A stretch of DNA of 64,000 nt from Candidatus Omnitrophota bacterium (GTDB lineage Bacteria > Omnitrophota > Gorgyraeia > Gygaellales > UBA12090), in assembly GCA_030674475.1 (NCBI GenBank), contig JAUSCZ010000033.1:52018-116017 (forward strand), read 5' to 3'. Every line of letters starts with the position of its first letter. The first letter of the stretch is position 1. Shown piece after piece: positions 19,879-35,797 of this stretch. Made by a program: the position numbers and the translations under genes. Below the pieces are notes generated by a model, which was given only the letters and a program-made list of their open reading frames with translations, did not search any database and was not told the origin of the DNA.

Positions 19879-21852
19879 GTGGAGAAGTTTAAATTAACTA
19901 GTTCTTTCAAGCCGGCCGGGGATCAACCCCAAGCGATTGAGGCTTTAACCCAGGGGATTAAGGATGGCCGGAAATATCAAACCCTCTTGGGAGTTACCGG
20001 CTCAGGCAAGACCTTTGCCCTGGCTAATACAATCGCCAAAATCAATAAACCTACCTTAGTTATTTCCCACAATAAAACCCTGGCCGCCCAGCTTTACGGC
20101 GAATTTAAGGAATTCTTCCCGAAAAACGCGGTAGAATATTTTGTCAGCTATTACGACTATTATCAGCCGGAGGCCTATGTCCCTTCCACTGATACCTATA
20201 TTGAGAAAGACGCCTCGATTAACGACCGGCTGGACCGGCTTCGCCTTTCCAGCACTACTTCTTTGCTCAGCCGGCAGGACTGTTTAGTGGTGGCCTCGGT
20301 TTCCTGTATCTATAATTTGGGCTCACCCGAGGATTACCGGGAGTCTCTGGTTTTTCTGGATTTGGGCCAGATAATCCGGCGCGATGAATTATTAAGACAC
20401 TTAATTGACATCCAATACGAGCGCAATGATTACGAATTTATCCGCGGTAAAATCAGGGTGCGGGGGGACACGATAGAGGTCTACCCGGCTTACGCCCAGA
20501 GCGCCGTCCGGATTGAGCTTTTTGGCGATGAGATAGAAAAGATTATTGAGTTTAACCCGGTTGACGGTAAAAAGATAACCGAACTTTCTAAGATTGCTAT
20601 TTATCCGGCTAAGCATTTTATTATCCGCGGCCCCCGGATAGAAGACGCCCTAAAATCTATTTCTTATGAGCTCAGCCAACAGCTGGAACTTATGCGCTCC
20701 CAAAATAAAATCTTAGAGGCCCAGCGTTTAGAGTCGCGCACCAAATACGATATAGAGATGTTAAAGGAAATCGGCTATTGCCACGGGATAGAAAATTATT
20801 CCCGCCATCTTTCGGCCAGGCCCACCGGGAGCCGGCCGCACTGCCTGATAGATTATTTTCCTAAGGATTTTCTCTTGGTAATTGATGAAAGCCATGTAAC
20901 TATTCCCCAGATAAGGGGAATGTATGAGGGGGATAAGGCCAGAAAAGAGACTCTGGTAGAGTTCGGCTTTCGTCTGCCTTCCTGTTTGGATAACCGGCCC
21001 CTGAAATTTAACGAGTTTGAGGGTTTGATAAATCAGGCAATTTTTGTCTCAGCTACCCCGGCAGAATACGAGCTCAAAAAATCCAAGGGTCAGGTTATTG
21101 AGCAGATAATTCGGCCTACCGGTTTGATTGACCCGGAGATTATTATCAAGCCCATCGAGGGCCAGATTGAGGACCTGGTTAAGGAAATCTCCCAACGGGC
21201 CAAAAATAACGAGCGGGTTTTGGTAACTACCCTGACCAAGAGGATGTCTGAGGATCTATCCGCCTATTTAAAGGAAAAAGGCCTGAAGGTGAGATATCTA
21301 CATTCCGAGATTCAAACCCTTGAAAGGGTCAGGATACTTAAAGAATTGCGCCAGAAGAAGTTTGACTGCCTGGTAGGGGTAAATCTTTTGCGCGAGGGTT
21401 TGGACTTGCCCGAGGTTTCCCTGGTAGCCATATTAGACGCGGACAAGGAAGGCTTTTTAAGGTCAGCCACCAGCCTGATCCAGGTCTCCGGACGGGCCGC
21501 CAGGAATATTAACGGCCAGGTGATTATGTACGCGGATACCATTACCGGCTCAATGCGCCAGGCAATTGAAGAAAGCTCCCGGCGCCGGAAGAAACAGTTT
21601 GAATTTAATCTCAAGAATAAAATCACTCCCCGGAGTATCCAGAAGTCCATCCGCGAAGGCCTTGAGCTTTTGGATGAAGCCGAGAGCCTGGTTGAAGGCC
21701 TCACCGGCTTAGCCAAAGAAGAATACGAGCTGAGCTCCTATATCAGCGAGCTGGAATACCAGATGGAGCTGGCCGCCCGCAACCTGCAGTTTGAAGAAGC
21801 CGCCCGGATAAGGGATAAGATCAAGGAACTAAAGACAGGCAGCCCTGATTAA
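19879..21852 (+). CDS. uvrB: excinuclease ABC subunit B
   Basis: GVTGSGKTF Walker A, helicase motifs, C-terminal UvrB/UvrC interaction domain. GTG start. Confidence 0.95.
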   Translation: MEKFKLTSSFKPAGDQPQAIEALTQGIKDGRKYQTLLGVTGSGKTFALANTIAKINKPTLVISHNKTLAAQLYGEFKEFFPKNAVEYFVSYYDYYQPEAYVPSTDTYIEKDASINDRLDRLRLSSTTSLLSRQDCLVVASVSCIYNLGSPEDYRESLVFLDLGQIIRRDELLRHLIDIQYERNDYEFIRGKIRVRGDTIEVYPAYAQSAVRIELFGDEIEKIIEFNPVDGKKITELSKIAIYPAKHFIIRGPRIEDALKSISYELSQQLELMRSQNKILEAQRLESRTKYDIEMLKEIGYCHGIENYSRHLSARPTGSRPHCLIDYFPKDFLLVIDESHVTIPQIRGMYEGDKARKETLVEFGFRLPSCLDNRPLKFNEFEGLINQAIFVSATPAEYELKKSKGQVIEQIIRPTGLIDPEIIIKPIEGQIEDLVKEISQRAKNNERVLVTTLTKRMSEDLSAYLKEKGLKVRYLHSEIQTLERVRILKELRQKKFDCLVGVNLLREGLDLPEVSLVAILDADKEGFLRSATSLIQVSGRAARNINGQVIMYADTITGSMRQAIEESSRRRKKQFEFNLKNKITPRSIQKSIREGLELLDEAESLVEGLTGLAKEEYELSSYISELEYQMELAARNLQFEEAARIRDKIKELKTGSPD

Positions 21853-22015: not shown

Positions 22016-22588
22016 TTGTTAAATCTTTATATCACCAAATCCAGAATCAGGCAGGATCTGCTTGCCCTATTTTTCACCAATCCTTCTCAAAGGTATTACC
22101 TCAGAGAGATTCAACGTATTCTCGGGCATTCCGCCGGCACTATCCGCAGGGAGCTTTTAAGATTCCAGGAAGACAGCTTATTCACCACCAAGAGAAACGG
22201 CAATCTTTTATACTATTCGTTAAACAGGAAGCATCCTTTATTTGATGAATTAAAAAGTATTATTTCAAAAACAATCGGCATGGAAGGAAGCCTGAAAAAC
22301 GCGTTAGTATCGCTTAAGGGAATAAGTTTTGCCTTTATTTACGGGTCGTTTGCCTCCAGGAAAGAAAAATCCGCGAGCGATATTGACTTGATGGTAATCG
22401 GGGACCCTGATGCGTCTTTACTTAATGAGAAAATAGCTCAGTCGGAAAATAAGCTGAAGAGAGAAATAAACCACCTGGTGTATTCTTTAGAAGAATACAA
22501 GGCGAAGAAAAAGACAAAAAGCGGTTTTATCACGGATATTCTGAATAATCCCAAAATAATGCTGATAGGACAGGAAAGTGAATTATAA
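22016..22588 (+). CDS. winged-HTH (ArsR-like) + minimal nucleotidyltransferase fusion protein
   Basis: YYLREIQRILGHSAGTIRRELLRF HTH; GSFASR...DIDLMVIGD Pol-beta nucleotidyltransferase motif. Confidence 0.65.
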   Translation: MLNLYITKSRIRQDLLALFFTNPSQRYYLREIQRILGHSAGTIRRELLRFQEDSLFTTKRNGNLLYYSLNRKHPLFDELKSIISKTIGMEGSLKNALVSLKGISFAFIYGSFASRKEKSASDIDLMVIGDPDASLLNEKIAQSENKLKREINHLVYSLEEYKAKKKTKSGFITDILNNPKIMLIGQESEL

Positions 22589-22605
22589 TACCAGGAAAAC
22601 TTTCC

Positions 22606-24414
22606 ATGAGTAACCCTAAATATAAAAATAGCCGCGGCCGGCTGCGCATTGGCGACGATTGGAACGCGATAACAATTATCGCGCTTTCGCAAAACAATCC
22701 TTTAAAGGCAATTGCTGAATTGGTGGAAAATAGCATTGACGCCCAGGCCGGACATATTACCATTATCCGCGGTAAAGAACACGGAGAGCACTACCTTAAA
22801 GTTATCGACGATGGACAGGGTATTCCTTGCGATGGGGAAGGTATTCCTGATTTTAAGTATGTGGCAACCCATATCTGTGATTCGCTGAAACGGCGTTTAA
22901 AAGAAGGAGGCTTCCAAAACATTCAGGGAGAATTCGGTATCGGCCTGCTTAGTTTTTGGACCGTCGGACATAAACTATTGATGGTCTCTTCCGGCAAAGA
23001 TGGCAAGGCCTACCAAATGAATATGGAGAAAGGTAAGCCAGGTTATTCAATATCCCACCGTCCCCATCTGCTACCCATAAAAGGAACGCAGTTAACCATA
23101 GCCTCTTTGCTCGCGGGAATACGTATGCTCAGCGGCGAAAAAATTCAACGATATTTAGCCTCCGAGTTAAGAGACCGGATTCGTCATTCAGGCGTGAAGA
23201 TTAAGATTATTGACCGAACCGCTCGCGCGGAGTTTGAGGTTGAACCGCGCCAATATGAAGGCCAGCTTATCCATGATCTTCCTTTGCTTACAACGGCTTT
23301 CGGTGAACCTATTTATGTGGAGATATATATCGCGGGAAAAAATAGCGAAAACAGCGTTAGCCTTTTTCGTTCAGGGACACGGGTGCTCCCTAATATCTCT
23401 ATACTTGATTTCTTTCAATGTGAGCCCTGGACTTCCGGTTATTTTGAGGGAATTATTGATGCTCCCTTCTTACATCTTACGCCCGGCACCAGAGACGGAA
23501 TAATTCATGATGAACTATTGTCCGGATTCTGTGATTCTATAGCGCCTCTTAAAGAACGGCTGACGGCAATTGCTTTGGAGCAAGGCAAAGCTGAAGAAGA
23601 GCGGATGAGCAAGAATATACTCCGTTCCGTGCAGAAGGCATTCCTTGATGCTATGACCGCTTTGCCGCCCGAAGAATATGATTGGTTTGGTATCGAGCAA
23701 AAGAACGCGCATCGTTCGTCCACTGACAACAATGATATCGCGAAGGAAAATGGCGTAATGATGGTTCCTGACGCGCTAAGGCAGGGAGAGAAGAAAAGCG
23801 GGCAGAAAGAGTTTTTCGAAATCGCCGGGCCGCTCTTTTCCACCCGTATCCAGCCAGGTTCGGCACTGGTGCAGGTGGGCAAGACGAAACCTTTCCGGGC
23901 TATCGGATTAGATCGCAACAAACGTCAGGTAGAAGAGAATCTCTCATATCTATGGTGTATTACGGAAGGAAAAGGAGATCTCGATAAATTAGACGGCGAG
24001 ATGGTTGTTTTTAACGCCCCCCTGGAACCCGGCTTGAGTAAATTAAAACTGGTGATTCAACGAGACGATATACGTTGCGAGACAGAAAGCATCGTTACCG
24101 TTGTGGATTCTTTGTTTAAGGTTTCGGCTGAAAACAGTGAATTCCCACGCAAGGGATTACCCGGCTATACGCTAGAAAGCGCCCCTGGATATACCTGGCG
24201 CTCGCGCTATGACGAAAAACGCAATATTGTTATCATCAACAGCGGCCATCGCGATTTCATTTACGCCGGACGCGAGAAAGCCAGAAAACTGCGCTATATC
24301 TGCCGCCTCTTCGCCAAAGAATTGATTTTGCAAAATTTTGCCGGTCTGTCTTCCGGAGAACTCCTGGAGCGTCTGGTCGAATTATCATTATACACTGAAG
24401 AGAATTTGCGCTGA
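22606..24414 (+). CDS. GHKL (Bergerat-fold, MORC/HSP90/MutL-like) ATPase, 602 aa
   Basis: N-box ELVENSIDA, G1 DDGQGI, G2 GEFGIGLLS. Confidence 0.7.
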   Translation: MSNPKYKNSRGRLRIGDDWNAITIIALSQNNPLKAIAELVENSIDAQAGHITIIRGKEHGEHYLKVIDDGQGIPCDGEGIPDFKYVATHICDSLKRRLKEGGFQNIQGEFGIGLLSFWTVGHKLLMVSSGKDGKAYQMNMEKGKPGYSISHRPHLLPIKGTQLTIASLLAGIRMLSGEKIQRYLASELRDRIRHSGVKIKIIDRTARAEFEVEPRQYEGQLIHDLPLLTTAFGEPIYVEIYIAGKNSENSVSLFRSGTRVLPNISILDFFQCEPWTSGYFEGIIDAPFLHLTPGTRDGIIHDELLSGFCDSIAPLKERLTAIALEQGKAEEERMSKNILRSVQKAFLDAMTALPPEEYDWFGIEQKNAHRSSTDNNDIAKENGVMMVPDALRQGEKKSGQKEFFEIAGPLFSTRIQPGSALVQVGKTKPFRAIGLDRNKRQVEENLSYLWCITEGKGDLDKLDGEMVVFNAPLEPGLSKLKLVIQRDDIRCETESIVTVVDSLFKVSAENSEFPRKGLPGYTLESAPGYTWRSRYDEKRNIVIINSGHRDFIYAGREKARKLRYICRLFAKELILQNFAGLSSGELLERLVELSLYTEENLR

Positions 24415-24590
24415 TTGCAGGCCGGGTTACCCTACTAACAGGAGCAAATTGACCCGCGGAAGATAAAAAGCGAGAATGCCAAGATTCAAGACCCCTTTTA
24501 TCCTATCCACGAGAGCAGATTTGCCAACTTAGAGACAAATTTTACCCAACAGACAAGCTTAGCGCCATGTTTGTTGGGTAATTTATTTTG

Positions 24591-24650
24591 TTGACATTTG
24601 TTACCTAACAAGTTAAATTATAGTATGGTTTGTTAGGTAACAGGAGGACT
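24591..24650 (+). promoter_or_regulatory. promoter with inverted-repeat operator (ttgttacctaacaa / ttgttaggtaaca) upstream of small protein A
   Basis: TTGACA ... TATAGT flanked by a 13 nt inverted repeat. Confidence 0.5.
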
Positions 24651-24651
24651 T

Positions 24652-24972
24652 ATGAGAGGTGTTATAAAAGGAGTATTGGCGGAAGAATTGGAAAATTCTC
24701 TTCGCATGAAGAAGGAATACGAAGGAGCTTTGAGGAATTTGCCTAAAGGGTGTCTTGCGGTAAGAAAAATACGAGGCCATGAGTATTGTTACCTGGCAGA
24801 AAGAGTGGATAAGAAAGTAAAGTATATTTACAAAGGTAAACTATCCGCAGAAGAAAAGAAAAGGTATGAAGAGGCCAAAGAATTAAGGGCTAAATACAGG
24901 AAATTATTGTCTCAAGTCAAAAAGCAAATAAGATTCTTAAGGAGTTCTCTGCGTGGAAAAGAAGCAGTCTGA
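24652..24972 (+). CDS. small basic protein, paralog A (putative regulator/antitoxin-like partner of the nucleotidyltransferase)
   Basis: ~60% identical to the 27362-27679 product; operator palindrome upstream. Confidence 0.6.
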   Translation: MRGVIKGVLAEELENSLRMKKEYEGALRNLPKGCLAVRKIRGHEYCYLAERVDKKVKYIYKGKLSAEEKKRYEEAKELRAKYRKLLSQVKKQIRFLRSSLRGKEAV

Positions 24973-25256
24973 TTTATGCCTTGAAATCTTAAGGAGGCTC
25001 CATAAGGCCGGTATCTTGGATGATTTAATCCTTATAGGCAGTTGGTGCGTATATTTCTATAGAGAATATTCCAGCAATGTGTCCTACATGGATCAAACCA
25101 CTATGCGAAATCAGTCATTCAGGACAAAGAAAGACAGAAAACTTGAACTTGTTTTCAACCGAAAAAGAAATTTCCAGGGGATGGCGTAAGATTGCCGTTA
25201 AGGTGGTTGATATTTTTGGTAATGATACGATAAGAGTAATTAAGGTGAATATATAA
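24953..25256 (+). pseudogene. decayed fusion: N-terminal ~45 codons of nucleotidyltransferase paralog A joined to a 3' remnant of a type III mod gene
   Basis: MEKKQSDLCLEIL...LIGSWCVYFY matches the start of the 27660 protein. SFRTKKDRKLEL and, in another frame, RKIAVKVVDIFGNDTIRVIKVNI* match the C-terminus of the 29779-32064 Mod. Confidence 0.7.
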
Positions 25257-25299
25257 GTTTTTATATGGCCAATATATGATAAAAGGGGGGGGGTAATGC

Positions 25300-26991
25300 A
25301 TGAAAAAAAATCTTTTGGATACAAAAACAGCTTCATGGGGGGAGTTAATTAAGAATGGAAGAACCTTTATGGTCCCAAGATTTCAAAGAGATTATTCGTG
25401 GGAGGAAGAGCAATGGGATGATCTTTGGTATGACTTGGTTAATTTAGAGGAAGAAGATTTTCATTATATGGGGTATTTAGTATTACAAAATAGCCCCACG
25501 AATGAATATCTGGTTATCGACGGACAGCAGAGATTGACGACTTTAAGTATTATTGCTTTAGCGGTGATTCAACACATCGCGGAATTGATTGAGAAAGGTA
25601 AGGACCATAAAAACAACGAAGAGCGCAAGAAATTGTTGATGGACTCGTTTCTTGGATATAAAGATCCGGCTTCTTTGGTAGCCAAGAGCAAATTAACGCT
25701 TAATCGTAATAATAATGATTTTTATCAAAGTTACTTATTGCGTTTTAGAAAACCAACGAGTAAAAGTAAACTCAAGCCTTCTGAAAAACTTCTTATTAAC
25801 GCTGTCGAATATTTTTATGAAAAGATAAAGTTTAAGTTCGGTCAGGATATTTCAGGTGAGAAATTGGCTGATTTTCTTGATAAGAAAACGGCGGATAAAT
25901 TTATATTCACGTTTATTACTGTTGATAATGATTTGAATGCTTACAAAGTATTTGAAACACTCAATTCAAGGGGGGTGAGGCTATCTCCCACGGATTTGTT
26001 AAAAAATTATTTGTTTATGGTGGCGGCTCAAAAAGGCGAAACTGATATCGATCAAGCTGAAAGACAATGGCAAAGTATTAATAATATTTTAGGTGGAATA
26101 GAGCTTACCACATATCTAAGGCATTTTTGGAATTCGAGAAATATGATCGCCAGAAAGCAGAATTTATTTAAAGTTGTTAAGAATTCAATTACTGACGCGG
26201 ATCAGGCCTTCGCTTTATTGGATGAACTTGAAAATAACGCGCAACTTTACGCGGCTTTTTCTCAGCCAGAAGATGAGCTTTGGAAACAGGCTGAGCAAAG
26301 CGAATATATTAGACAATTAAAATTATTCGGCGTGACCCAGTGTTATCCTCTTTTGTTGGCGGCTTATAAGAAGTTTGACCCGAATGAATACGCTCGTTTA
26401 TTGAGATGCTGTTGTGTGATTGCTTTTCGATACAATGTGATTGGCGGGCTAAATCCCAATAAGCTGGAAGATGAATACAGCAAAACGGCTCAGGATGTTT
26501 ATGCCGGCACGCTGAAAAACGCGCGGGAAATATTTCATAACCTGAAATCGGTTTATGTCATTGATGAAGAGTTTGAAAGCTCATTCGCCGCGAAAAGTAT
26601 TACCACCAAGGGAAAGGGCGCGAAATTAGTCAGATATATCCTTTTCTCATTGGAAAATCAGATAAGCAATAAAAAATATGATTTTAGTGATAGCTCCGTA
26701 ACTATCGAGCATATATTACCGGAAAATCCTTCTCAAAGCTGGGAGTCAAATTTTACTATTGAAGAGCAAATTCAATTTGTATTTCGTTTAGGCAATTACG
26801 CGCTTTTGGAAGAATCAAAAAATAAAATGTGTCAAAACGACTTTTATCCGACAAAGAAAGAAATTTACAAAACAAGCAGTTATAAAATAACAGCCCAAGA
26901 TAGCGTATGCGATGAATGGAACCCCGAAAGAATTTCAGAGAGACAAAAGAAGTTGGCAAAATACGCTAAAACTGTCTGGAAATTTGAGTGA
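25300..26991 (+). CDS. GmrSD-like type IV (modification-dependent) restriction enzyme, DUF262 + DUF1524
   Basis: N-terminal DUF262 (ParB-like) motifs (...VIDGQQRLTT), C-terminal His-Me/HNH-like SVTIEHILPEN. Confidence 0.75.
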   Translation: MKKNLLDTKTASWGELIKNGRTFMVPRFQRDYSWEEEQWDDLWYDLVNLEEEDFHYMGYLVLQNSPTNEYLVIDGQQRLTTLSIIALAVIQHIAELIEKGKDHKNNEERKKLLMDSFLGYKDPASLVAKSKLTLNRNNNDFYQSYLLRFRKPTSKSKLKPSEKLLINAVEYFYEKIKFKFGQDISGEKLADFLDKKTADKFIFTFITVDNDLNAYKVFETLNSRGVRLSPTDLLKNYLFMVAAQKGETDIDQAERQWQSINNILGGIELTTYLRHFWNSRNMIARKQNLFKVVKNSITDADQAFALLDELENNAQLYAAFSQPEDELWKQAEQSEYIRQLKLFGVTQCYPLLLAAYKKFDPNEYARLLRCCCVIAFRYNVIGGLNPNKLEDEYSKTAQDVYAGTLKNAREIFHNLKSVYVIDEEFESSFAAKSITTKGKGAKLVRYILFSLENQISNKKYDFSDSSVTIEHILPENPSQSWESNFTIEEQIQFVFRLGNYALLEESKNKMCQNDFYPTKKEIYKTSSYKITAQDSVCDEWNPERISERQKKLAKYAKTVWKFE

Positions 26992-26994
26992 TTT

Positions 26995-27222
26995 ATGGCG
27001 CCGCGCGCGCAAGGTTATGAAAAACTATTCCCGCCTTTTGTGCCGGAGCTTAGGAAGCGGGTTAAGGAGTGGCGGGATAAGGGCTACGAGGGGGCGAGCG
27101 CGACATCAAGGGCTCTTTTAAGCTGGCGGTTCAAAGAAGACCTCTTGCTTATGGAATATAAGCTTACAGTGAGAGAAAGACGAGATAATGTCTACTGTCC
27201 GGGTCTGACCCCTAAAACCTAA
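26995..27222 (+). pseudogene. 5' fragment of a type III res gene (duplicate of the 33113 gene N-terminus)
   Basis: GYEKLFPPFVPELRKRVKEWRDKGYEGASA; ~90% nt identity to 33205-33345, then diverges and stops. Confidence 0.7.
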
Positions 27223-27361
27223 AACCGCTTGAAAGTTACCATACTTAGTATGACATTCCTGCATTTGTATGGTAACTTTTTTGTTTGACAATGGTTGTCA
27301 TACAATATATACTATTATATAGTTTGTATGGTAACTAATTCAATCGAACGGAGAGTTTAAT

Positions 27362-27679
27362 ATGGGAGTCATAAAAGGAGTGCTTAAAGAAGAACTCGAG
27401 AATTCTATACGCATGAAAAGCGACTATGAGCGTGAATTGGCAAAGCTGCCTAAAGGCAGCCTCATTAAGAAAAAGGTTAAGGGGCATGAGTACTATTATC
27501 TTTTGTTGCGGGAGAAAGGGAAGGTAAGATTCATCTATAGAGGGAAAGTGTCTGATGAAGAAATAAAAAAATACAAAGAAGCAAAAGAATACAGGGCTAA
27601 GTACAGAAAATTATTATCTCAGGTAAAAAAACAAATTAGATTCTTAAGGAGCACTCTGCGTGGAAAAGAATCAATATGA
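27362..27679 (+). CDS. small basic protein, paralog B
   Basis: Paralog of the 24652 product; upstream inverted repeats agttaccatac / gtatggtaact. Confidence 0.6.
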   Translation: MGVIKGVLKEELENSIRMKSDYERELAKLPKGSLIKKKVKGHEYYYLLLREKGKVRFIYRGKVSDEEIKKYKEAKEYRAKYRKLLSQVKKQIRFLRSTLRGKESI

Positions 27680-28352
27680 ACTATGCATTAAGGTTCTAAA
27701 AAGATTTGATAAGGCCGGAGTTCTAAAAGACGTTATTCTTATAGGTAGTTGGTGTATTCCATTCTATAAAGAATATTTTGCGGGCATAAAGTATATCTCG
27801 ACCATTAAGACAAGAGATGTAGATTTCTTGATTCCCAACCCGCGCGGAATCAGGGCTAATGTGAATATCCCAGAATTATTAAAAGACTTAGGATTTATCA
27901 TTGGTTATAGGGGAGCAAAAGGATATATTAAATTAGAACATCCTGATCTGGTAGTGGAATTTTTATCTCCAGAGAAAGGAAAAGGCACCGATAGGCCAAT
28001 CCCCTTACCGAAGTTAGGCGTTAACGCGGTTGCTCTGAGATTTTTGAGTTTGCTTACTGATAATGTAATTAAGGCTAAAGTTGAAGATTTTGAAGTCTTA
28101 TTACCTCATCCTGCCAATTTCGCCCTCCACAAATTAATAATTTTCCAGCGTAGACTCAAAGAAGATAAAGCAATAAAAGACAGAAATGCGGCGGTAGAAA
28201 TTCTTAAAGCTTTGATAACTAAGGGCGAAGCGGTAACTATCAAGCACGTTTTTAATTCCATGCTTCCAAAATGGCAGAAAAAAGTTATAAAAGGATTGCA
28301 GGAAGCCAAAGAAAGAGAGATTATTCTTATACTACAAAATGCCGGAAAATAG
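27660..28352 (+). CDS. Pol-beta superfamily nucleotidyltransferase, paralog B (AbiEii/DUF1814-like toxin candidate)
   Basis: LIGSWCIPFY...TRDVDFLIPN (hGS ... DxD). Start overlaps the small protein. Confidence 0.55.
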   Translation: MEKNQYELCIKVLKRFDKAGVLKDVILIGSWCIPFYKEYFAGIKYISTIKTRDVDFLIPNPRGIRANVNIPELLKDLGFIIGYRGAKGYIKLEHPDLVVEFLSPEKGKGTDRPIPLPKLGVNAVALRFLSLLTDNVIKAKVEDFEVLLPHPANFALHKLIIFQRRLKEDKAIKDRNAAVEILKALITKGEAVTIKHVFNSMLPKWQKKVIKGLQEAKEREIILILQNAGK

Positions 28353-28451: not shown

Positions 28452-29732
28452 TTGAGGTCTGACCCTATTAGCTCATTGACTGTTCACATAGGAGAATTAA
28501 ATGTGGCCATATATTTTTTCAATCAATACAGTGCTTTAATTAATGAATTTAACATAGACAATGATAAGGTGGGGCAACAAAAAAAGAAGATTTTTGTTTC
28601 GATGTGGTATGGAGAAGAAAATGATGGCACTAAGCAAGAACAATCGGATCTTTATGACGAATATTTTAAAGGAGCAATCGAGAAAAAAGGAATCTACAAA
28701 GTAATTTCTACAAAGATAAAAGATAATGATAAGGATATTGATATTGATTTTGGTCTGAAATATTTGCTTGAAACCACGATAGCTGATGATACTAGAAAAG
28801 ATGATATAAGTTTTGACATTTTCAGAAAGATTATCGAAGCCAGTCTAATTATTTGTGATGTTACGCCGATTGGAAAAATTCAGGATAAAGAAAAGCCGGT
28901 ATTTTGCGATAATGTCATGGCAGAATTAGGATTAAGCTTAGCATGGAAACTACCCGAACAAGTTATCATCCTTTTTAATATAGAAAATAGTTTTAAATTC
29001 TCCTTGAACGAGCTTCCATTCAATATCAAAGGCTATTTTGTCCACAGATTAGATTTCAATAATCAAAATTTTAAAAAAGACTTATTAAAGATTATTAAAG
29101 TAAGATTTGAAGGCATAAATGAAAAAAAGAGTATTTTTATAAAAAATATAAAGAGCAAGCTTGATCAGGATTCTATTAGCGCTTTAGCGGGACGAAATGG
29201 ATTGATGTTTTTTGATCAGAAAGTAGATGTGCATACGATTCGCTATTTATTATCTCTTGGTATTATACGAACCGAACAATTTCCATCAAGACCTATTAGT
29301 TTTGGATATTGTTTGACCGAAATGGGCAAAGTTGTTCTTACTCAACTCGGTATACAGTTATTTCCAGAAGAATTCATTGATTTTTATTTAGTGCGTTACT
29401 GGGAGGGATATTCTGCTGCGAAGGGTTATGCCCCGCACAATTTTGAAGAAAAGCAGAAAGCTTTCGAAAAAGCTTATGGAATTAAAGATTGGAAAGATAG
29501 TCTACGAATTTTTGTAGAACAAATACTGCAAGAGGTTAAAAAAGTAATTGAAGATGCTCCGACAGTAAAAAGAGGAATAGAAGAGCGTTCTAAGGAAAAA
29601 CAAAATGGATATAGTCATGATTTAGAGATTTTTCCCTATTTCGTTGATTCCTATCCCTTTGAGTTGGTGAATTCAACAGTTTCAAAATGGTTGAAGTTGA
29701 CGCATAATAAGAAGAAAAATGAATCAGCATGA
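28452..29732 (+). CDS. hypothetical protein with N-terminal nucleoside 2-deoxyribosyltransferase/SLOG-like domain
   Basis: IFVSMWYG ... LIICDVTP ... NVMAELGLSLAW...VIIL resembles the N-deoxyribosyltransferase/TIR-like Rossmann signature. Start uncertain: TTG at 28452 or GTG at 28503. Confidence 0.4.
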   Translation: MRSDPISSLTVHIGELNVAIYFFNQYSALINEFNIDNDKVGQQKKKIFVSMWYGEENDGTKQEQSDLYDEYFKGAIEKKGIYKVISTKIKDNDKDIDIDFGLKYLLETTIADDTRKDDISFDIFRKIIEASLIICDVTPIGKIQDKEKPVFCDNVMAELGLSLAWKLPEQVIILFNIENSFKFSLNELPFNIKGYFVHRLDFNNQNFKKDLLKIIKVRFEGINEKKSIFIKNIKSKLDQDSISALAGRNGLMFFDQKVDVHTIRYLLSLGIIRTEQFPSRPISFGYCLTEMGKVVLTQLGIQLFPEEFIDFYLVRYWEGYSAAKGYAPHNFEEKQKAFEKAYGIKDWKDSLRIFVEQILQEVKKVIEDAPTVKRGIEERSKEKQNGYSHDLEIFPYFVDSYPFELVNSTVSKWLKLTHNKKKNESA

Positions 29733-29778: not shown

Positions 29779-32064
29779 TTGTTTTTTAAAGGTAAAAAGA
29801 TAATGAGATTATCGGATAACGAAAAAAGAGACGCGATAAAGTTGCTTCAGGAAGGGAAGCCTTTGCCTGATAAATACCGCTTTCTTTTGTTTGCTGATGA
29901 CCGGGAGGTTGAGCTGGTGTGGAATGGGAAGACGCAGGAAGTTTGCAATCTGGTTTTGCCCTTTCAGACTATTGAGCATATTGATGAGCCGAGGAGTGAG
30001 AGAATAAAAAAGGGCGGTTATGTTGGGGATTTGTTTGATCCCTCCGGGCGTCAGATTCGGGGATGGACGAATAAGCTGATATGGGGAGATAACAAGCTGA
30101 TTTTATCGTCTTTAAAGAATGGGCCAATGAGGCGGGAAATTGAAAAACAGGGCGGTTTAAAGCTGATCTATATTGACCCGCCGTTTGACGTGGGAGCGGA
30201 TTTTTCAATGAATGTTGAGATCGGAGACGAATCCTTCACCAAAAAGCCGTCAGTTATTGAAGAGGTAGCTTATCGGGATACCTGGGGGCAAGGTGCGGAT
30301 AGCTTTATTGCTATGATTTACGAGCGGTTGAAGCTCATGCACGGACTTTTGGCGGATGACGGCAGTATTTATGTGCATTGTGATACACGTGTTAGTTCAT
30401 ATATGAAATTAGTACTAGATGATGTGTTTTCCAAAGAAAATTTCATCAATGAAATCATTTGGAAAAGATCAACTGCCCATAGCGACAATAGAGCTTATGG
30501 AAATCTGCATGATACGATTTTCTATTACACAAAAAGCGATGATGCAGTCTTTAATCCCGTTTATGATCCCTATTCGGAAGACTACATTCAAACCTATTAT
30601 CGGCATGATGACGCTAAGGGTAAATTCTTGGATCGAGATTTGTCTGCAAAAGGTTTATCAGGCGGAGGCTATCAGTATGAATGGAAAGGTAAAAATGGAA
30701 TTTGGCGTTGTCCAAAGACCACTATGGAGCGATACGAAGCCGAGGATAAAATATATTACACTTCCAACGGTACACCACGATATAAGCAATATCTAAATGA
30801 GATGCCGGGTATTTCTGCGCAAGACATTTGGACCAATATATTTGCGGTTAATTCACAAGCCAAAGAGCGAATAGACTATCCAACACAAAAACCAGAGACT
30901 CTTCTTGAGCGTATTATCAAAGCGTCTTCCAACGAAGGCGATCTTGTTGCTGATTTCTTTTGTGGTTCCGGCACGACTTTAGCAGTTGCGGAAAAATTGG
31001 GGCGGAAATGGATTGGTGCAGATCTCGGACGTTTTGCTATTCATACATCCCGTAAGCGGTTAATTCAGGTTCAGCGCGAGATGAAAAAAGAGGGTAAGAA
31101 TTTTAGGGCGTTTGAGATTCTTAACCTCGGCAAATATGAGCGGGAGCAATATGTCAATGTTGATGTGGATATCCGGGAGCAGGAAAAACAGCAGATTTTA
31201 GAAAACAAAGAAAAGCAGTTTATTGAACTGATCCTTTCTGCCTATAACGCCCAAGCTGTGGATTCTTACAATTCGTTTGTCGGTAAGAAGCGTGACCGGC
31301 TGGTTGCGGTCGGTCCTGTTGATACGCCGGTATCAGCCGCTTTTGTTGATCAGGCGATTAAGGAAGCTAAGGAGAAAGGAATCACTAAATTTGATGTTCT
31401 CGGTTTTGATTATGAGATGGGGATTGATTTCGCGCAACTTAGCCGCCAGGGCGTTGATGTGCAGTTTAAGGTTATTCCCCGGGAAGTTTTTGACCGCCGC
31501 GCGGTGGAAAAAGGGCAGGTGAAATTCTACGATGTTGCCTACATTGAAGTGAAGCCGATCATCAAAGGGCGGGGGAATAATAAAACGATAGCGGTTGAAC
31601 TGTGCGATTTCAGCGTATTTTATAATCAGGACAGCGTTGAAGAGATAGAGGGATCGCTTAAAGAAGGTTCAAGTAAGATCGTAATTGAGAATGGACAAGT
31701 TATTAAGGTATCCAAAGACAAAAAGACAGCGGTGGTAACTAAAGAAGTTTTGACCAAGAAATGGACGGACTGGGTGGATTACTGGTCGGTTGATTTTAAT
31801 ATGGAGAACAGAAAAGAGATTGTCCGGGTGCCGGTAAATCCCCCCTTGCTCCCCTTTTCCAAAGGGGGGTTGGAATTTGAAGAAAAATGGACTGGCGGGT
31901 ATATATTTGAAAATGAGTGGCAGTCATTCAGGACAAAAAAAGAGAGAAAACTTGAGCTTATATCTGCTGAGAAAGAAGTTTCCCTGGGGCGGCGTAAGAT
32001 TGCCGTTAAGGTGGTTGATATTTTCGGCAATGATACGACAAGAGTAATTGAGGTTAATATATGA
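29779..32064 (+). CDS. mod: type III restriction-modification DNA N6-adenine methyltransferase (Mod)
   Basis: Motif IV IYIDPPF and motif I DFFCGSGTT in the beta-class order. Start may be the ATG at 29803. Confidence 0.85.
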   Translation: MFFKGKKIMRLSDNEKRDAIKLLQEGKPLPDKYRFLLFADDREVELVWNGKTQEVCNLVLPFQTIEHIDEPRSERIKKGGYVGDLFDPSGRQIRGWTNKLIWGDNKLILSSLKNGPMRREIEKQGGLKLIYIDPPFDVGADFSMNVEIGDESFTKKPSVIEEVAYRDTWGQGADSFIAMIYERLKLMHGLLADDGSIYVHCDTRVSSYMKLVLDDVFSKENFINEIIWKRSTAHSDNRAYGNLHDTIFYYTKSDDAVFNPVYDPYSEDYIQTYYRHDDAKGKFLDRDLSAKGLSGGGYQYEWKGKNGIWRCPKTTMERYEAEDKIYYTSNGTPRYKQYLNEMPGISAQDIWTNIFAVNSQAKERIDYPTQKPETLLERIIKASSNEGDLVADFFCGSGTTLAVAEKLGRKWIGADLGRFAIHTSRKRLIQVQREMKKEGKNFRAFEILNLGKYEREQYVNVDVDIREQEKQQILENKEKQFIELILSAYNAQAVDSYNSFVGKKRDRLVAVGPVDTPVSAAFVDQAIKEAKEKGITKFDVLGFDYEMGIDFAQLSRQGVDVQFKVIPREVFDRRAVEKGQVKFYDVAYIEVKPIIKGRGNNKTIAVELCDFSVFYNQDSVEEIEGSLKEGSSKIVIENGQVIKVSKDKKTAVVTKEVLTKKWTDWVDYWSVDFNMENRKEIVRVPVNPPLLPFSKGGLEFEEKWTGGYIFENEWQSFRTKKERKLELISAEKEVSLGRRKIAVKVVDIFGNDTTRVIEVNI

Positions 32065-32165: not shown

Positions 32166-32963
32166 ATGAAGTGTATCCATATTTATTCAGATGAAAGTCG
32201 GCATAGAAATGAACGATTTTTGCTCCTGGCGGGCTTATGGATTGAGGAATCAAAAATCAAAGCGGCTGAGAATGAAATTACTGCTTTCCGCAAAAAACAC
32301 GGTTTCGTTAATTCTCAAGGGCAGCATGCCGATTTTCTTGGTGAGTTTAAGTGGACAAAGGTTTCTCAGCGTTATTTGCCGGTCTATAAAGAATTGGCTG
32401 ATATAGCGTTTAAATGGATTGCGGAAGATAGAGCTCGTTTTAATGTGATTCTTGTTGACACTCAGGATGCAGCTGTTACGGCGTTCGGAAACATAAAGGA
32501 AGAGGGATATTTTAAGCTTCTTTATCAGCTTTATTACCACAATTCAAAAACTCCTGCTCTATATAAAATCTATCCTGACAGTATCACTAATCCGGTTCAA
32601 GCGCGCGTTAGTCTTGATAAGCTACAGCAGTGTCTTGAAGTGGCCCTGCGCAACAGGTTTCTACCGCTTCTGAACCCCGCGGAGACTCAAGAGCCGGTCT
32701 CTTTTGTGAATAATATTTTACCAATTGATTCAAAGCATGCGCCGTTTATTCAGATTGCCGATGTGATCATGGGCGCGATCGGGTACTTACAAAACGGTTT
32801 GTTTAGAAATCCCGCGGCGAAAAAGGCAAAAGTTGAATTGATGAAATATATTTTTGATAAAATAACTCTATCGGGCGCTATACAGGTGCAAGGAAAGAAA
32901 TACTTTGTCGCGCGGTCAACGAAGTTTAATATATGGTTGTTCCGGCCAAAAAAAACCTCTTAA
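32166..32963 (+). CDS. DUF3800-family protein
   Basis: N-terminal IHIYSDESRH and the overall pattern of DUF3800; located between mod and res. Confidence 0.6.
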   Translation: MKCIHIYSDESRHRNERFLLLAGLWIEESKIKAAENEITAFRKKHGFVNSQGQHADFLGEFKWTKVSQRYLPVYKELADIAFKWIAEDRARFNVILVDTQDAAVTAFGNIKEEGYFKLLYQLYYHNSKTPALYKIYPDSITNPVQARVSLDKLQQCLEVALRNRFLPLLNPAETQEPVSFVNNILPIDSKHAPFIQIADVIMGAIGYLQNGLFRNPAAKKAKVELMKYIFDKITLSGAIQVQGKKYFVARSTKFNIWLFRPKKTS

Positions 32964-33112: not shown

Positions 33113-35797
33113 ATGGCATTGCATAAAGATTTTCCTAAGGATAAGTTCGCGATTTTAGAACCGGAGATTCGCTGGTTTCCGGCTGATGAGGCGTTGCGTG
33201 CCCCGGGAGGCTATGAAAAACTGCTCCCGCCTTTTGTGCCGGAATTGAGAAAGCGTGTTAAGGAGTGGCGGGATAAGGGCTACGAGGGGGCGAGCGCGGT
33301 ATCAAAGGCTCTTTTAAGCTGGTGGTTCAAAGAAGAACATCTTGGCTTTGGGGTGGACGGCAACGCGTTTTCATTCCGGTATTATTTTGCCCAGCGTGAG
33401 GCAGTTGAAACTATTATCTGGTTGTATGATGTTGCCGGAGTACGAAACAAATATGACCTTTTGCCGTTTGATTCATTGGGGCGGGTAAGCCCGAATATGT
33501 TTGATGAGGACTGGCTTAGGTTAGTTATTAAGATGGCCACCGGAAGCGGCAAAACAAAGGTAATGAGTTTGCTTCTGGCATGGTCTTATTTTCATAAGCT
33601 CTATGAGCCGGAGTCGGGGCTTTCCCGCAATTTTCTTTTAATTACGCCGAATATTATCGTGCTTGAGCGTATCAAGACCGATTTTGGCGGATTAAAGATA
33701 TTCCATCATGACCCTGTTTTGCCGGATAATGGATATGAAGGTAGAAACTGGCAGGATGATTTTCAGATAACCTTGCATTTACAAGATGATTTGACCGCGA
33801 TTTCTCCTACCGGAAATATTTTTCTTACCAATATACACCGTGTTTATGAGGGCGATGTCAAGGAGTCGTCTTTTAGCGATGGGGATTTGACGGATTATTT
33901 TTTAGGGAAAAAGCCTGTTTCAAAAACAAACGAATCCTTGGTTGAGCTTAGTAATGTGGTCCGGGAAATTGATGAGATCGTTGTTTTTAACGATGAAGCC
34001 CATCACATTCACGATCCCAAGATGGCCTGGTGGACATCAATCCAAGATATAAATAATAAATTGAAACAGAAAGGCAGGCAGATTTCTTTACAGATAGACT
34101 GCACGGCAACGCCAAAACATGATAATGGATCAATCTTCGTGCAGACGATTTCCGATTATCCGCTGGTTGAGGCAATTTATCAAGGGGTGGTTAAGACTCC
34201 CGTGCTTCCGGATCAGGCCAGCCGGGCCAAATTACAGGAAAAACAGAGCGCGCTGTTTACCGAGAAATATGAAGATTATATCAATCTTGGTATCGAAGAA
34301 TGGAAAAAGGCTTCCAAGGAACTTGAACCGACCGGGAAAAAAGCTATTTTGTTTATTATGACCGATGATACAAAAAACTGTGATGAGGTGCAGGCGTATT
34401 TAGAAAAGAATTATTCCGCTTTAAACGGTAAAGTTTTGACTATTCATACGAATAAAAGCGGTGATATATCGGAAAAGGTAACCGGTAAGGCCAAGGAAGA
34501 ATTGGATCGCCTGCGGAAAGAAGCCAATGAAATTGATGGACTGGAAAGCCCTTATCAGGTAATCGTTTCGGTTTTAATGCTCAAGGAAGGATGGGATGTT
34601 AAGAACGTTACCACAATAGTAGGCCTTCGAGCATACGCGGCGGCATCAAACATTTTGCCGGAGCAAACGCTTGGCCGGGGTTTGAGGCGGATGTTTTTCG
34701 GCCAGGAAGATGTGGAAGAATATGTAAGCGTGGTGGGAACGCCGGCATTTATGGATTTTGTGGAGTCAATTAAGGCGGAAGGCGTGGATTTGGAAAAGCG
34801 AAAGATGGACTTAACGACAAAGGCGATTACGCCGACGGTCATTGAAGTTGACCGGGACAATCCCAAAAAAGATATTCAAAGGTTGGATATTGAGCTTCCG
34901 ATTTTAACGCCGAGGATTCAGAGGGAATACAAAGACTTGGCGAGTTTGAATGTAGCAGGTTTTCAGCATGGTAAGTTGAAGGTAAAGACGTTTAGCGAGC
35001 AGGAGCAGCGAGAGATTGTGTTCAAGCACGTGGTTGAAGAAAAGGTTCACCATACGACTATTCTGGAAAGCAATATTGAGCCGAACTATCAGAGCGTGGT
35101 TGGTTTTTTCGCTCAAAGCATTATGCGGGAGCTTCGCCTTTTTGGGTGTTACGACATTTTATTCGGTAAGGTTAAAGAGTTTATTTATTCGCGCCTGTTT
35201 GAAACAGCGGTTGACCTTAATGACAAGAATGTTTTAAGAAACCTTTCAGAAATTGAAGCCATAAAGACAATAATCCAGACTTTTAAGAATGAAATCAACG
35301 CCTTAACGGTGAAGGATGTTGGTGATACCGAGATTAAGAATTATATTAAGGTCAGCAGCAGCCGCCCGTTTGTCGTTAATGACCGGATGTATTTAGTGCC
35401 CAAGAAAAGCGTATTTAACAGAATTGTCGCAGATAATCAGTTTGAGCTTGATTTCGCGGATTTCCTGGAACGATTGGGCGATGATGAAGTTATTTCCTTC
35501 GCGAAGAATTATTATGGAGTGCATTTTAAGATAGACTATAAGAACGCCGACGGGACGATAGCGAATTATTACCCGGACTTCTTTGTTAAAACTGATGAAA
35601 AGACGGTGTATATCGTTGAGACTAAGGGGCGCGAGGATTTGGATGATTCTTTGAAGATTAAAAGGCTTGCTCAATGGTGCGATGACGCGAACGCCCGGCA
35701 GAAAAAGATTACTTATAAAATGCTCTATGTGAAGCAGGAAGTTTGGGAGAAGTATAAGCCTAAGAATTGGAAAGAGCTTATTGTTGCTTGCAATTAA
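33113..35797 (+). CDS. res: type III restriction enzyme Res subunit (SF2 helicase + nuclease)
   Basis: Walker A MATGSGKTKV, DEAH box FNDEAHH, helicase C-terminal motifs; ~890 aa. Confidence 0.85.
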   Translation: MALHKDFPKDKFAILEPEIRWFPADEALRAPGGYEKLLPPFVPELRKRVKEWRDKGYEGASAVSKALLSWWFKEEHLGFGVDGNAFSFRYYFAQREAVETIIWLYDVAGVRNKYDLLPFDSLGRVSPNMFDEDWLRLVIKMATGSGKTKVMSLLLAWSYFHKLYEPESGLSRNFLLITPNIIVLERIKTDFGGLKIFHHDPVLPDNGYEGRNWQDDFQITLHLQDDLTAISPTGNIFLTNIHRVYEGDVKESSFSDGDLTDYFLGKKPVSKTNESLVELSNVVREIDEIVVFNDEAHHIHDPKMAWWTSIQDINNKLKQKGRQISLQIDCTATPKHDNGSIFVQTISDYPLVEAIYQGVVKTPVLPDQASRAKLQEKQSALFTEKYEDYINLGIEEWKKASKELEPTGKKAILFIMTDDTKNCDEVQAYLEKNYSALNGKVLTIHTNKSGDISEKVTGKAKEELDRLRKEANEIDGLESPYQVIVSVLMLKEGWDVKNVTTIVGLRAYAAASNILPEQTLGRGLRRMFFGQEDVEEYVSVVGTPAFMDFVESIKAEGVDLEKRKMDLTTKAITPTVIEVDRDNPKKDIQRLDIELPILTPRIQREYKDLASLNVAGFQHGKLKVKTFSEQEQREIVFKHVVEEKVHHTTILESNIEPNYQSVVGFFAQSIMRELRLFGCYDILFGKVKEFIYSRLFETAVDLNDKNVLRNLSEIEAIKTIIQTFKNEINALTVKDVGDTEIKNYIKVSSSRPFVVNDRMYLVPKKSVFNRIVADNQFELDFADFLERLGDDEVISFAKNYYGVHFKIDYKNADGTIANYYPDFFVKTDEKTVYIVETKGREDLDDSLKIKRLAQWCDDANARQKKITYKMLYVKQEVWEKYKPKNWKELIVACN

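Follow-up and report, generated by a model that had tools for sequence, protein, structure and literature searches.

A split GSU2403-family nucleotidyltransferase operon with paired palindromic operators, a candidate MenAT/AbiE-like module

The stretch of Candidatus Omnitrophota DNA analysed here (64,000 nucleotides; the window) carries two copies of a small basic gene followed by a Pol-beta nucleotidyltransferase (NTase) gene, and the question is what this pair does: whether it is a toxin-antitoxin (TA) module of the AbiE type, as a sequence-only reading of the locus had proposed, an enzyme with its own regulator, or an accessory of the adjacent restriction-modification (R-M) genes. The two paralogous cassettes are present where that reading had placed them. 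The small gene of cassette 1 (small1, 24652..24972, + strand) is an intact ORF for a basic protein of 106 aa with a helix / beta-meander / helix layout, which belongs to the YAAC-class paralogue group (clade signature C33/A35/K49/K53/Y57), and that of cassette 2 (small2, 27362..27679, +) encodes a basic protein of 105 aa, a putative operator-binding autorepressor and NTase partner. The two proteins are 69% identical and strongly basic, with 28-30% K+R and net charges of +16/+17.

Cassette 2 is intact, and its second gene (NTase2, 27660..28352, +), which starts with GTG, encodes a complete PF12281/GSU2403-family Pol-beta nucleotidyltransferase of 230 aa, the putative toxin/effector. The two genes overlap by 20 nt, and the NTase start, in the +1 frame, precedes the final sense codon of small2 by 17 nt, an offset that is identical in related loci. 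In the initiation region (27646..27662, +), as read from the sequence, the Shine-Dalgarno (SD) motif AAGGAG at 27646-27651 and the GTG at 27660 both sit within the stretch of small2 that encodes the conserved protein tail FLRS...LRGKE, an arrangement that indicates a predicted translational coupling. Alternatively, the two ORFs might be one gene, read as a fused small-NTase protein by way of programmed +1 frameshifting of the ribosome within the 20 nt of overlap: at about 140 loci the NTase ORF is without exception in the +1 frame and the overlap is identical, fused homologues exist (see below), and the SD-like AAGGAG shortly upstream of the overlap is reminiscent of prfB. However, AAGGAG with GTG 8 nt on is a canonical initiation site, the overlap has no slippery or hungry-codon context (CUG CGU GGA, without +1 tRNA re-pairing), a conserved in-frame LRGKES[IV] stop ends the small ORF at all loci, and orphan small genes persist as complete ORFs; we regard a frameshift as very improbable.

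Cassette 1, on the other hand, is broken. Its second ORF (24953-25189) is a truncated NTase paralogue, as had been recognised, with NTase homology to about residue 51. This remnant (24953..25108, +; about 51 codons, locally aligned to NTase2 residues 1-51) is preceded by AAGGAG at 24939-24944 and keeps the hGS motif; the DxD motif is missing, so its product is catalytically dead. It is cut at about codon 52, with an in-frame junction to a copy of Mod residues 715-732, and the remnant of a type III mod 3' end that lies there (25112..25254, +; 86% identical to 31921-32062) marks the deletion that destroyed NTase1. Cassette 1 would be a decayed copy, its toxin deleted and its repressor/antitoxin kept.

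The inverted repeats that had been noted in front of the cassettes are real, and there are more of them than noted: the composite GTTACCNNACA-N20-TGTNNGGTAAC, with up to 3 mismatches, matches the 64-kb window four times (24541-24582, 24600-24641, 27235-27276 and 27294-27335), against no match in 100 shuffles, and in the window such operators are found solely upstream of the small gene. Each cassette promoter has two 42-bp operators, with arm starts exactly 31 nt apart. The distal operator of cassette 1 (24541..24582, +; TTTACCCAACA-N20-TGTTGGGTAAT, 2 mismatches) ends 9 nt before the -35 of the promoter TTGACA-17-TAAATT (24591..24619, +; 10/12 in a consensus scan), a position that recurs in related loci together with the 31-nt arm offset, and the proximal operator (24600..24641, +; GTTACCTAACA-N20-TGTTAGGTAAC, 'YAAC' class, 0 mismatches) covers the -10 and stops just short of the ribosome-binding site. 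In cassette 2, the distal operator (27235..27276, +; GTTACCATACT-N20-TGTATGGTAAC, 'ATAC' class, 1 mismatch) is followed by the promoter TTGACA-17-TATACT (27285..27313, +; 11/12, the best in the region), and the proximal operator (27294..27335, +; GTTGTCATACA-N20-TGTATGGTAAC, 2 mismatches), whose degenerate left arm is also found in L009, L016, L035 and L057, covers the -10. The earlier description of promoters embedded in inverted repeats is accurate for the first pair of arms, which forms the proximal operator of cassette 1 over the -10; the second pair (agttaccatac / gtatggtaact) is instead a distal operator upstream of the -35, the -10 lying in 27294-27335.

The same layout recurs across many phyla, at about 100 loci. 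In a set of 125 upstream regions, no two of them identical, the proximal operator was found in 106, the distal one in 95 and both in 92, with an arm offset that is dominantly 31 nt and a distal-to-proximal spacing of mostly 58-59 nt. Palindromic operators overlapping the promoter, a generic trait of TA operons, are by sequence architecture present and conserved, and they point to autoregulation by the small protein, as had been suggested. There are three arm variants (ATAC, YAAC and CAACC), each paired with a distinct residue signature of the small protein, although this co-variation rests on about three clades and so represents few independent events. The residues that discriminate the arm classes lie in the beta-sheet (33-57) and at the end of helix 1; the ATAC and YAAC classes do not differ in the C-terminal helix (78-105). 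From these patterns we infer that the small protein binds the operators.

Searches with small2 recovered 1451 homologues (711 representatives at 50% identity) and matched no curated family, no known antitoxin in Pfam, NCBIfam or PADLOC, and no PDB sequence; PADLOC has no model for either protein of the pair. The AF2 model of small2 (pLDDT 89.8; H2-28, E33-39, E42-51, E54-61, H65-99) is a helix, a three-strand beta-meander and a helix (H-E-E-E-H), and neither this topology nor the Pfam and NCBIfam searches revealed an HTH or wHTH, in agreement with the earlier remark that the partner is unlike AbiEi. Foldseek, which had been proposed as a check for both proteins, likewise gave no significant match to a known DNA-binding domain or antitoxin: the best hit was the prefoldin beta subunit at a non-significant E of 0.18, a likeness in topology only, with no sequence homology and no chaperone evidence. 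The three-strand sheet is weakly, not significantly, similar to the arm-binding domains of tyrosine integrases (3jtz, 3rmp; Foldseek probability 0.3 at most), and there was one Pfam Arm-DNA-bind_1 match at 1e-4. We rejected an assignment as an AbiEi/COG5340 or MenA1-type antitoxin on account of the H-E-E-E-H topology without HTH and the absence of an antitoxin match, and one as Hfq/Sm on account of a score of 13.8 bits against a cut-off of 27 and of three strands between two long helices in place of a five-strand Sm barrel. DUF6788 (PF20586) was also discarded: the window proteins do not match it at E<=0.1, and since relatives give sub-threshold matches alone (2/16 and 8/89, best E 1.5e-4), the precomputed DUF6788 label is a faint match.

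NTase2, in turn, matches Pfam PF12281 (NTP_transf_8) with 80.2 bits against a gathering cut-off of 26.3, over profile positions 4-203 of 218, and NCBI labels its homologues 'GSU2403 family nucleotidyltransferase fold protein'. This family, presumably group XVIII/COG5397 of Kuchta et al. 2009, has no described function. The earlier reading had left it to profile searches whether the two proteins belong to known non-regulatory and housekeeping families; they place the small protein in no known family and the NTase in one without described function. NTase2 has all the elements of a Pol-beta catalytic site, namely hG[GS], [DE]x[DE] and the third carboxylate: G28, S29, D52, D54 and E99 do not vary among 25 homologues of 66-90% identity, and in the model G28-S29, D52-x-D54 and E99 fall on the expected strands. 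A patch HKLI..RR..K..KD is also invariant among homologues, and the net charge of +14 suggests a nucleic-acid substrate. The proposed resemblance to AbiE holds at the level of the fold, which is two-lobed and MenT-like, with the toxins MenT1, MenT3, MenT4 and JHP933 among the nearest solved structures; ANT(2'') and LnuA are also among the best structural matches, and the scores of MenT1/3/4 equal or exceed those of these resistance enzymes. It does not hold at the level of the family: Pfam gives PF12281 only, with no AbiEii/DUF1814 (PF08843) match at E<=0.1, PADLOC gave no AbiEii match, and the NTase profile found no MenT or AbiEii among PDB sequences.

The two genes are conserved as neighbours elsewhere, as the earlier reading had anticipated. 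The NTase gene lies directly downstream in the same overlapping frame at 75 of 80 small-seeded genome loci, and a full small gene directly upstream at 67 of 68 NTase-seeded metagenome loci, forming a compact bicistronic overlapping operon with the regulator first and no third gene, as is generic for TA operons. The 138 genes flanking the 80 loci represent 174 Pfam families, of which none was seen more than four times, and no conserved third gene accompanies the pair; these heterogeneous neighbours include some Fic, AbiEii and AAA_21 genes and many housekeeping genes, and the pair has no consistent link to a metabolic or resistance gene. The two-gene unit, which is absent from phages and occurs across many phyla at 60-93% identity, is widespread and unstudied. 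Its neighbours speak against the tie to R-M genes that had been considered, according to which the small protein would be a C-protein-like controller or accessory of the adjacent type III system. In the window both cassettes do have a type III mod/res unit immediately downstream, in one case intact and in the other decayed. However, Mod, Res, the 426-aa protein and GmrSD homologues are essentially never beside the pair elsewhere (3 weak Mod matches only, in 80 loci), the neighbours are spread over many families, the operators stand in front of the small gene alone, and the small protein has no HTH; we rejected it as a C protein and hold this explanation to be extremely improbable.

Minimal NTases are the antitoxins of HEPN-MNT systems, and in the homologue P0377 the small domain is fused to an MNT-type NTase. 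Both facts would suit a reversal of roles, in which the NTase serves as antitoxin or modifier in the manner of MNT, and toxicity resides in the small protein or an unlinked gene, but there is no conserved third gene and the NTase has a large two-lobed MenT-like fold, not a minimal MNT one. Moreover, since intact small genes without an NTase occur at nine loci or more and in cassette 1, the small protein is not toxic alone, and we consider this reversal highly improbable. In raw counts such decay is asymmetric: the NTase is absent or internally truncated beside an intact small gene at at least 9 of 77 evaluable loci, and the reverse was seen at 1 of 68 (Fisher p = 0.02, no longer significant at p = 0.07-0.17 after correction for gene length). 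A TA operon would be expected to tolerate orphan antitoxins but not orphan toxins; L127 is an exception, for there an intact NTase follows a chimeric 68-aa ORF in which just the final 20 residues of the small protein are left.

That the small protein might represent an undescribed class of free-standing antitoxin was not borne out. The alphaproteobacterial plasmid homologues are single proteins in all seven cases examined, of 339-358 aa in the five with an annotated CDS, and over about their first 100 residues they align collinearly with the small-protein profile (7/7, E 3e-9 to 2e-4 when seven sequences were searched). In the fused homologues the C-terminal helix of the small protein is contiguous with the first NTase helix, and paired inverted repeats lie upstream in 3/3 examined. 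The small protein is thus homologous to the N-terminal domain of ~340-aa GSU2403 proteins, and the pair is a split two-domain protein; relative to full-length members, the window module carries this domain not on the same polypeptide but in a separate upstream gene. Stable single-chain fusions, which are unusual among classical type II TA pairs, count against a TA reading, and they suit equally well an enzyme that carries its own regulatory or targeting domain. Accordingly, it is possible, though on balance doubtful, that the pair is a split non-toxic bifunctional enzyme/repressor, BirA- or NadR-like, with no role in addiction or abortive infection; the NTase would then nucleotidylate a small molecule (cf. 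ANT(2'')/Lnu) or carry out a benign RNA or protein modification, and the small protein would be its dedicated transcriptional repressor or targeting domain. This view fits the fused homologues, which are frequent on plasmids of alphaproteobacteria and occur there on their own, the structural matches to ANT(2'') and LnuA, the length-corrected decay statistics, the retention of the NTase in L127 without the putative DNA-binding part of the small protein, and the housekeeping neighbours. However, the MenT scores are at least equal to those of resistance enzymes, the charge of the NTase suggests nucleic acid as substrate, a consistently linked metabolic or resistance gene is lacking, the predicted double-operator autorepression and translational coupling are typical of TA operons, and the module is scattered patchily across phyla in multiple copies, decayed ones among them, as are selfish TA modules.

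We think there is an even chance that the pair is an autonomous, horizontally mobile, self-repressed split GSU2403 operon working as a MenAT/AbiE-like toxin-antitoxin or abortive-infection module. In such an operon, the small protein would be an antiparallel helical hairpin with the three-strand beta-meander at its tip that oligomerises on the two 42-bp operators, each made of two 11-bp arms whose starts are 31 nt, or about three helical turns, apart; with one operator just upstream of the -35 and the other over the -10, its binding is proposed to repress the operon. Gene 2, probably coupled in translation through its own SD and GTG start within the last codons of gene 1, would yield a catalytically complete Pol-beta nucleotidyltransferase with a predicted MenT/AbiEii-like two-lobed fold. 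Unrestrained, this enzyme would inhibit growth; it would most likely add nucleotides to RNA 3' ends, for example tRNA acceptor stems, as MenT does, and the small protein may restrain it by direct contact via its nearly invariant C-terminal helix. More tentatively, the module could found a new TA/defence family with a GSU2403 MenT-like effector, whose neutraliser is a DNA-binding protein of a novel type, a prefoldin-like hairpin reading 11-bp half-sites, with starts 31 nt apart, by its beta-meander, and which exists as a pair or, on plasmids, as a single-chain fused TA, self-inhibited like CapRel until a trigger frees the NTase.

Among known systems, MenT toxins are neutralised by unrelated antitoxins, including the small MenA1, and the M. 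tuberculosis MenA1-MenT1 pair resembles the module in having a short upstream partner followed by a Pol-beta NTase (PMC10435456, PMC11375011). The hG[ST] residue that is auto-phosphorylated in MenT toxins has an invariant counterpart here in S29. However, MenT belongs to DUF1814 and the NTase here to PF12281, with no sequence-level match to MenT in the PDB; MenA1 has 68 aa, two helices and no DNA-binding domain, whereas the partner here has 105 aa and a beta-meander; and menAT1 is not autoregulated, whereas double operators are conserved in front of our pair. The type IV TA / abortive-infection system AbiE shares with the module a mobile, patchy distribution and an operon of two overlapping genes in which the antitoxin/regulator precedes the NTase. 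In both, the promoter has two inverted repeats, via which AbiEi autorepresses (PMC3985639) and the small protein putatively does so. AbiE differs in that AbiEii is a DUF1814/COG2253 protein, that AbiEi (COG5340) is a two-domain wHTH + CTD protein of about 200-300 aa, and that its operators are 23-3-23 bp, in place of 11-bp arms with starts 31 nt apart. With wHTH-NTase fusions and HEPN-MNT (type VII) systems the module has in common a DNA-binding part, putative here, attached or adjacent to a Pol-beta NTase, but an MNT NTase is a minimal protein of about 100 aa that serves as the antitoxin to a HEPN RNase, whereas the NTase here is large, two-lobed and without a HEPN partner. As for the GSU2403/PF12281 family itself, the NTase is a bona fide member, and in the single-chain members the N-terminal domain is a homologue of the small protein; the difference is that the two domains are here separate, putatively translationally coupled genes.

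Our ORF calls confirmed the two small ORFs with overlapping nucleotidyltransferase (NTase) ORFs that had been described in the sequence-only reading. The two first genes, small1 (24652-24972, 106 aa) and small2 (27362-27679, 105 aa), encode proteins that share 69% identity and are strongly basic, with a K+R content of 28-30% and a net charge of +16/+17. NTase2 (27660-28352, 230 aa) overlaps small2 by 20 nt, matches Pfam PF12281 (NTP_transf_8) with 80 bits against a cut-off of 26, and starts with a GTG located 8 nt downstream of its own Shine-Dalgarno sequence AAGGAG (27646-27651). Since this Shine-Dalgarno-GTG start is canonical and the stop of the small gene is conserved, it is unlikely that a +1 frameshift yields a fused small-NTase protein. 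The partner of small1 is a remnant (24953-25189) that is homologous to NTase2 only to about residue 51; it keeps the hGS motif, its homology ends ahead of the DxD motif, and beyond that point its reading frame passes into a duplicate of Mod residues 715-732, the type III Mod being encoded at 29779-32064. This truncated homology and the in-frame Mod segment mark cassette 1 as a decayed copy that lost its NTase through a deletion.

Upstream of these genes, the composite pattern GTTACCNNACA-N20-TGTNNGGTAAC (up to 3 mismatches) has exactly four sites in the 64 kb of the window, a pair for each cassette (24541-24582 and 24600-24641 in cassette 1; 27235-27276 and 27294-27335 in cassette 2), and no occurrence in 100 dinucleotide-preserving shuffles. 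Single 11-mer arms (up to 2 mismatches), counted across the window, show no excess over chance, and the informative evidence for operators is confined to the composite 42-bp pattern and its conservation across loci. In each cassette, the distal operator stops 9 nt upstream of the TTGACA -35 box and the proximal one covers the -10 box, the promoters being TTGACA-17-TAAATT (24591-24619) in cassette 1 and TTGACA-17-TATACT (27285-27313) in cassette 2. The inverted repeats pointed out in the sequence-only reading are thus real, but they are part of a larger, very regular double-operator architecture; its placement of a promoter inside the repeat holds for the first pair, but not for the second, which is the distal operator of cassette 2 and not the promoter-embedding one.

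The pair is located in a defence island between uvrB (19879-21852) and birA (35838-36632). In this island, segment 24541-27222 is a decayed tandem copy of segment 27235-35797, with the order cassette, mod 3' remnant (25112-25254, 86% identical to 31921-32062), a different inserted gene, and res 5' remnant (27012-27147, 90% identical to 33208-33344). The gene between mod and res differs in the two copies, encoding a GmrSD/HEC-06 enzyme (25300-26991) in the decayed one, whereas a DUF3800 (PDC-M04A) gene (32166-32963) is inserted in the intact one, ahead of the type III Res gene (33113-35797), whose product has a sub-threshold C-terminal match to a TnsA-like endonuclease (24.6 bits, cut-off 26.5). 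Pfam, NCBIfam, PADLOC and PHROGs contain no match to the 426-aa ORF between NTase2 and mod (28452-29732), nor does any of 80 other loci have a homologue of it beside the pair. At 22016-24414, a wHTH plus Pol-beta NTase unit (PADLOC PDC-M05A, E 1e-55) precedes a 602-aa GHKL/MutL-like ATPase without a PADLOC match. In one homologous locus (L045), a 70% identical GHKL gene is located downstream of the pair, at a distance of 1.4 kb, and M05A-like genes are found near the pair in two others (L043 and L018).

We identified 1451 homologues of the small protein in the 90%-identity database, chiefly from Omnitrophota MAGs and including one that is 100% identical (P0001) and assigns the window to a Candidatus Omnitrophota MAG, as well as 711 representatives at 50% identity (E<=1e-3). 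A scan with one genome per species gave 80 small-seeded loci, from Omnitrophota, Planctomycetota, Elusimicrobia, Clostridia, Desulfobacterota, Saganbacteria, Chlamydiota, Kiritimatiellota and Pseudomonadota. Co-occurrence of the pair across genomes, which had been proposed as a check, was borne out in both directions: the NTase gene follows the small gene directly, overlapping it in the same +1 frame, in 75 of the 80 small-seeded loci, and a complete small gene lies directly 5' of the NTase gene in 67 of the 68 NTase-seeded metagenome loci with enough upstream sequence. No conserved third gene was found next to the pair in the 80 loci, where the 138 immediate neighbour genes spread over 174 Pfam families, none occurring more than four times; a few encode Fic, AbiEii, AAA_21 or DUF4143 proteins and many are housekeeping genes. 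Since the other island genes of the window do not co-occur with the pair in these loci, the neighbourhood data reject its linkage to Mod, Res, the 426-aa protein, GmrSD, DUF3800, PDC-M05A or GHKL; they speak against the suggested tie to the adjacent R-M genes, and contradict the explanation that the small protein is an R-M controller. A phage origin of the module was ruled out, as searches of IMG/VR contigs and GenBank phages returned no relatives of the small protein or of the NTase. The tight linkage, the heterogeneous neighbours and this lack of phage relatives together argue for an autonomous, horizontally mobile two-gene module rather than an R-M accessory. In locus L018 (5751-6775), the gene 105 nt after an orphan small gene encodes a 201-aa NTP_transf_2 NTase in place of the PF12281 NTase, which may reflect either a partner swap or chance adjacency; the N-terminal region of this NTase matches Pfam 'Dimerisation' (possibly wHTH-like).

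A tblastn search of plasmids with the NTase returned 308 alphaproteobacterial records with about 27% identity (Rhizobium, Sinorhizobium, Ensifer, Paracoccus and roseobacters), the annotated ones being named 'GSU2403 family nucleotidyltransferase fold protein'. The gene is solitary in all seven records examined; where a CDS is annotated, in five of them, the product is 339-358 aa long, the NTase part beginning near residue 108. The N-terminal ~100 residues of these proteins share the pattern of the small protein (helix / G-x-[FL]...G-x-x-Y-x-Y...G-K...Y-[VIL]-G / helix), and match its profile collinearly in 7/7 cases (E 3e-9 to 2e-4 in a 7-sequence search; conditional E down to 2.8e-9). The pair in the window thus represents a two-domain protein that has been split within its inter-domain linker, and it genuinely belongs to the GSU2403/PF12281 family. 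Following Rosetta-stone logic, the small protein and the NTase very probably work together physically. Paired inverted repeats also precede the fused gene in the three cases examined; for instance, two copies of GTTATAAG-N13-CTTATAAC stand on either side of TTGACT in pRL11. The arm offset in the fused homologues is 21 nt, or two helical turns (L161, 1985-2060; L163, 2114-2182), versus 31 nt in the split clade. On the Marinibacterium plasmid pLA6_009 (L165), the fused 340-aa gene (809-1828) directly follows the replication initiator gene, a position typical of plasmid-stability modules. Elsewhere the small domain is joined with an MNT-type NTase (P0377; NTP_transf_2), and fusions with XylR-like regulators (P0315 and P0353; Peripla_BP_3 plus AraC HTH) also occur, though the latter, with their long low-complexity linkers, might be gene-call artefacts.

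The AF2 model of the small protein (pLDDT 89.8) consists of a helix (2-28), three strands (33-39, 42-51 and 54-61) and a second helix (65-99). Foldseek returned no significant structural match, the top hits being prefoldin beta subunits (E 0.18, probability 0.98, TM ~0.55), followed by weak arm-type integrase domains; profile searches in Pfam, NCBIfam, PADLOC and PHROGs yielded nothing beyond sub-threshold noise (Hfq, DUF6788, COG3_N), with one Arm-DNA-bind_1 match likewise below threshold. In 125 non-identical upstream regions, we found the proximal operator in 106, the distal one in 95 and both in 92, with a dominant arm-to-arm offset of 31 nt (202 counts), lesser peaks attributable to pseudo-palindromic YAAC arms, and a distal-to-proximal spacing of mainly 58-59 nt. 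The arms are conserved and the spacers are not. The residue signature of the small protein differs with the arm variant: GTTACCATACA (the cassette 2 type, ATAC class) with S33/I35/K36/L49/E51/G53/F57, GTTACC[T/C]AACA (the cassette 1 type, YAAC class) with C33/A35/[VI]36/K49/[IV]51/K53/Y57, and the third type, GTTACCCAACC, with [AS]33/V35/[AS]36/S49/K51/G53/Y57. The class-discriminating residues fall in the beta-sheet and at the end of helix 1, and the ATAC and YAAC classes do not differ at residues 78-105. This co-variation, over only about three clades, is what one would expect if the operator arms are read by the beta-meander, and two specificity classes in one window would provide a ready-made orthogonal repressor-operator set.

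In the NTase, G28, S29, D52, D54 and E99 are invariant, together with a basic HKLI..RR..K..KD patch. It has no sequence-level match to DUF1814 proteins in Pfam, and profile searches of PDB sequences gave no match for either the NTase or the small protein. We found no functional study in the literature on PF12281, NTP_transf_8, GSU2403, DUF6788 or COG5397, the last being merely listed by Kuchta et al. 2009 as a group of uncharacterised probable NTases.

The best-supported model is a self-repressed operon with a putative RNA-modifying NTase restrained by the small protein. The small protein would oligomerise via its helical hairpin and bind the four operator arms, whose spacing (31, ~27-28 and 31 nt) would place them roughly on one DNA face, thereby occluding the -35 and -10 boxes and repressing the operon. 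AbiEi offers a precedent for autorepression via two inverted repeats (PMC3985639). Translational coupling would supply the NTase in fixed proportion, and the small protein may also restrain it through direct contact. Unrestrained, the NTase might nucleotidylate RNA 3' ends as MenT toxins do (PMC7450476, PMC10435456); these are kept in check by antitoxins with no structural relationship to one another, which trigger auto-phosphorylation at the hG[ST] residue (PMC11375011), a role for which the invariant S29 could serve.

At least 9 of the 77 evaluable small-seeded loci lack the NTase or carry one with an internal truncation, as cassette 1 does, whereas a damaged small gene was seen in 1 of the 68 NTase-seeded loci (Fisher p = 0.02; p = 0.07-0.17 when corrected for gene length). 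With this correction, we downgraded the asymmetry as proof of NTase toxicity; it points toward a toxin-antitoxin model without proving it. The exception, L127 (911-1778), retains an intact NTase; the chimeric 68-aa ORF ahead of it preserves just the final 20 residues of the small protein (KKQVRFLRSSLRGKESI), a stretch that includes the embedded Shine-Dalgarno sequence and NTase start. A reversal of the toxin and antitoxin roles is contradicted by the intact orphan small genes. The chief alternative, comparable to BirA or NadR, is that the enzyme is not toxic and simply has a dedicated repressor or targeting domain; the stable single-chain forms and the ANT/Lnu structural neighbours of the NTase speak for it.

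The GSU2403/PF12281 NTases have no described function, although the subfamily of the window NTase alone counts at least 1300 clusters at 90% identity, and rhizobia and roseobacters add hundreds of copies on plasmids. Even with a non-toxic NTase, a regulatory role and a partner would be assigned to a protein family annotated only as 'hypothetical'. Should the module instead be a restrained toxin of the MenAT/AbiE kind, NTase toxins would reach a third Pfam family, joined by an antitoxin/repressor of previously unseen fold with an unusual operator geometry, and the split and fused forms would be a natural pair for studying toxin restraint in trans and in cis. Although the module has neither the DUF1814 toxin domain nor the COG5340 or MenA1 antitoxin of MenAT and AbiE, it would work much as these systems do.
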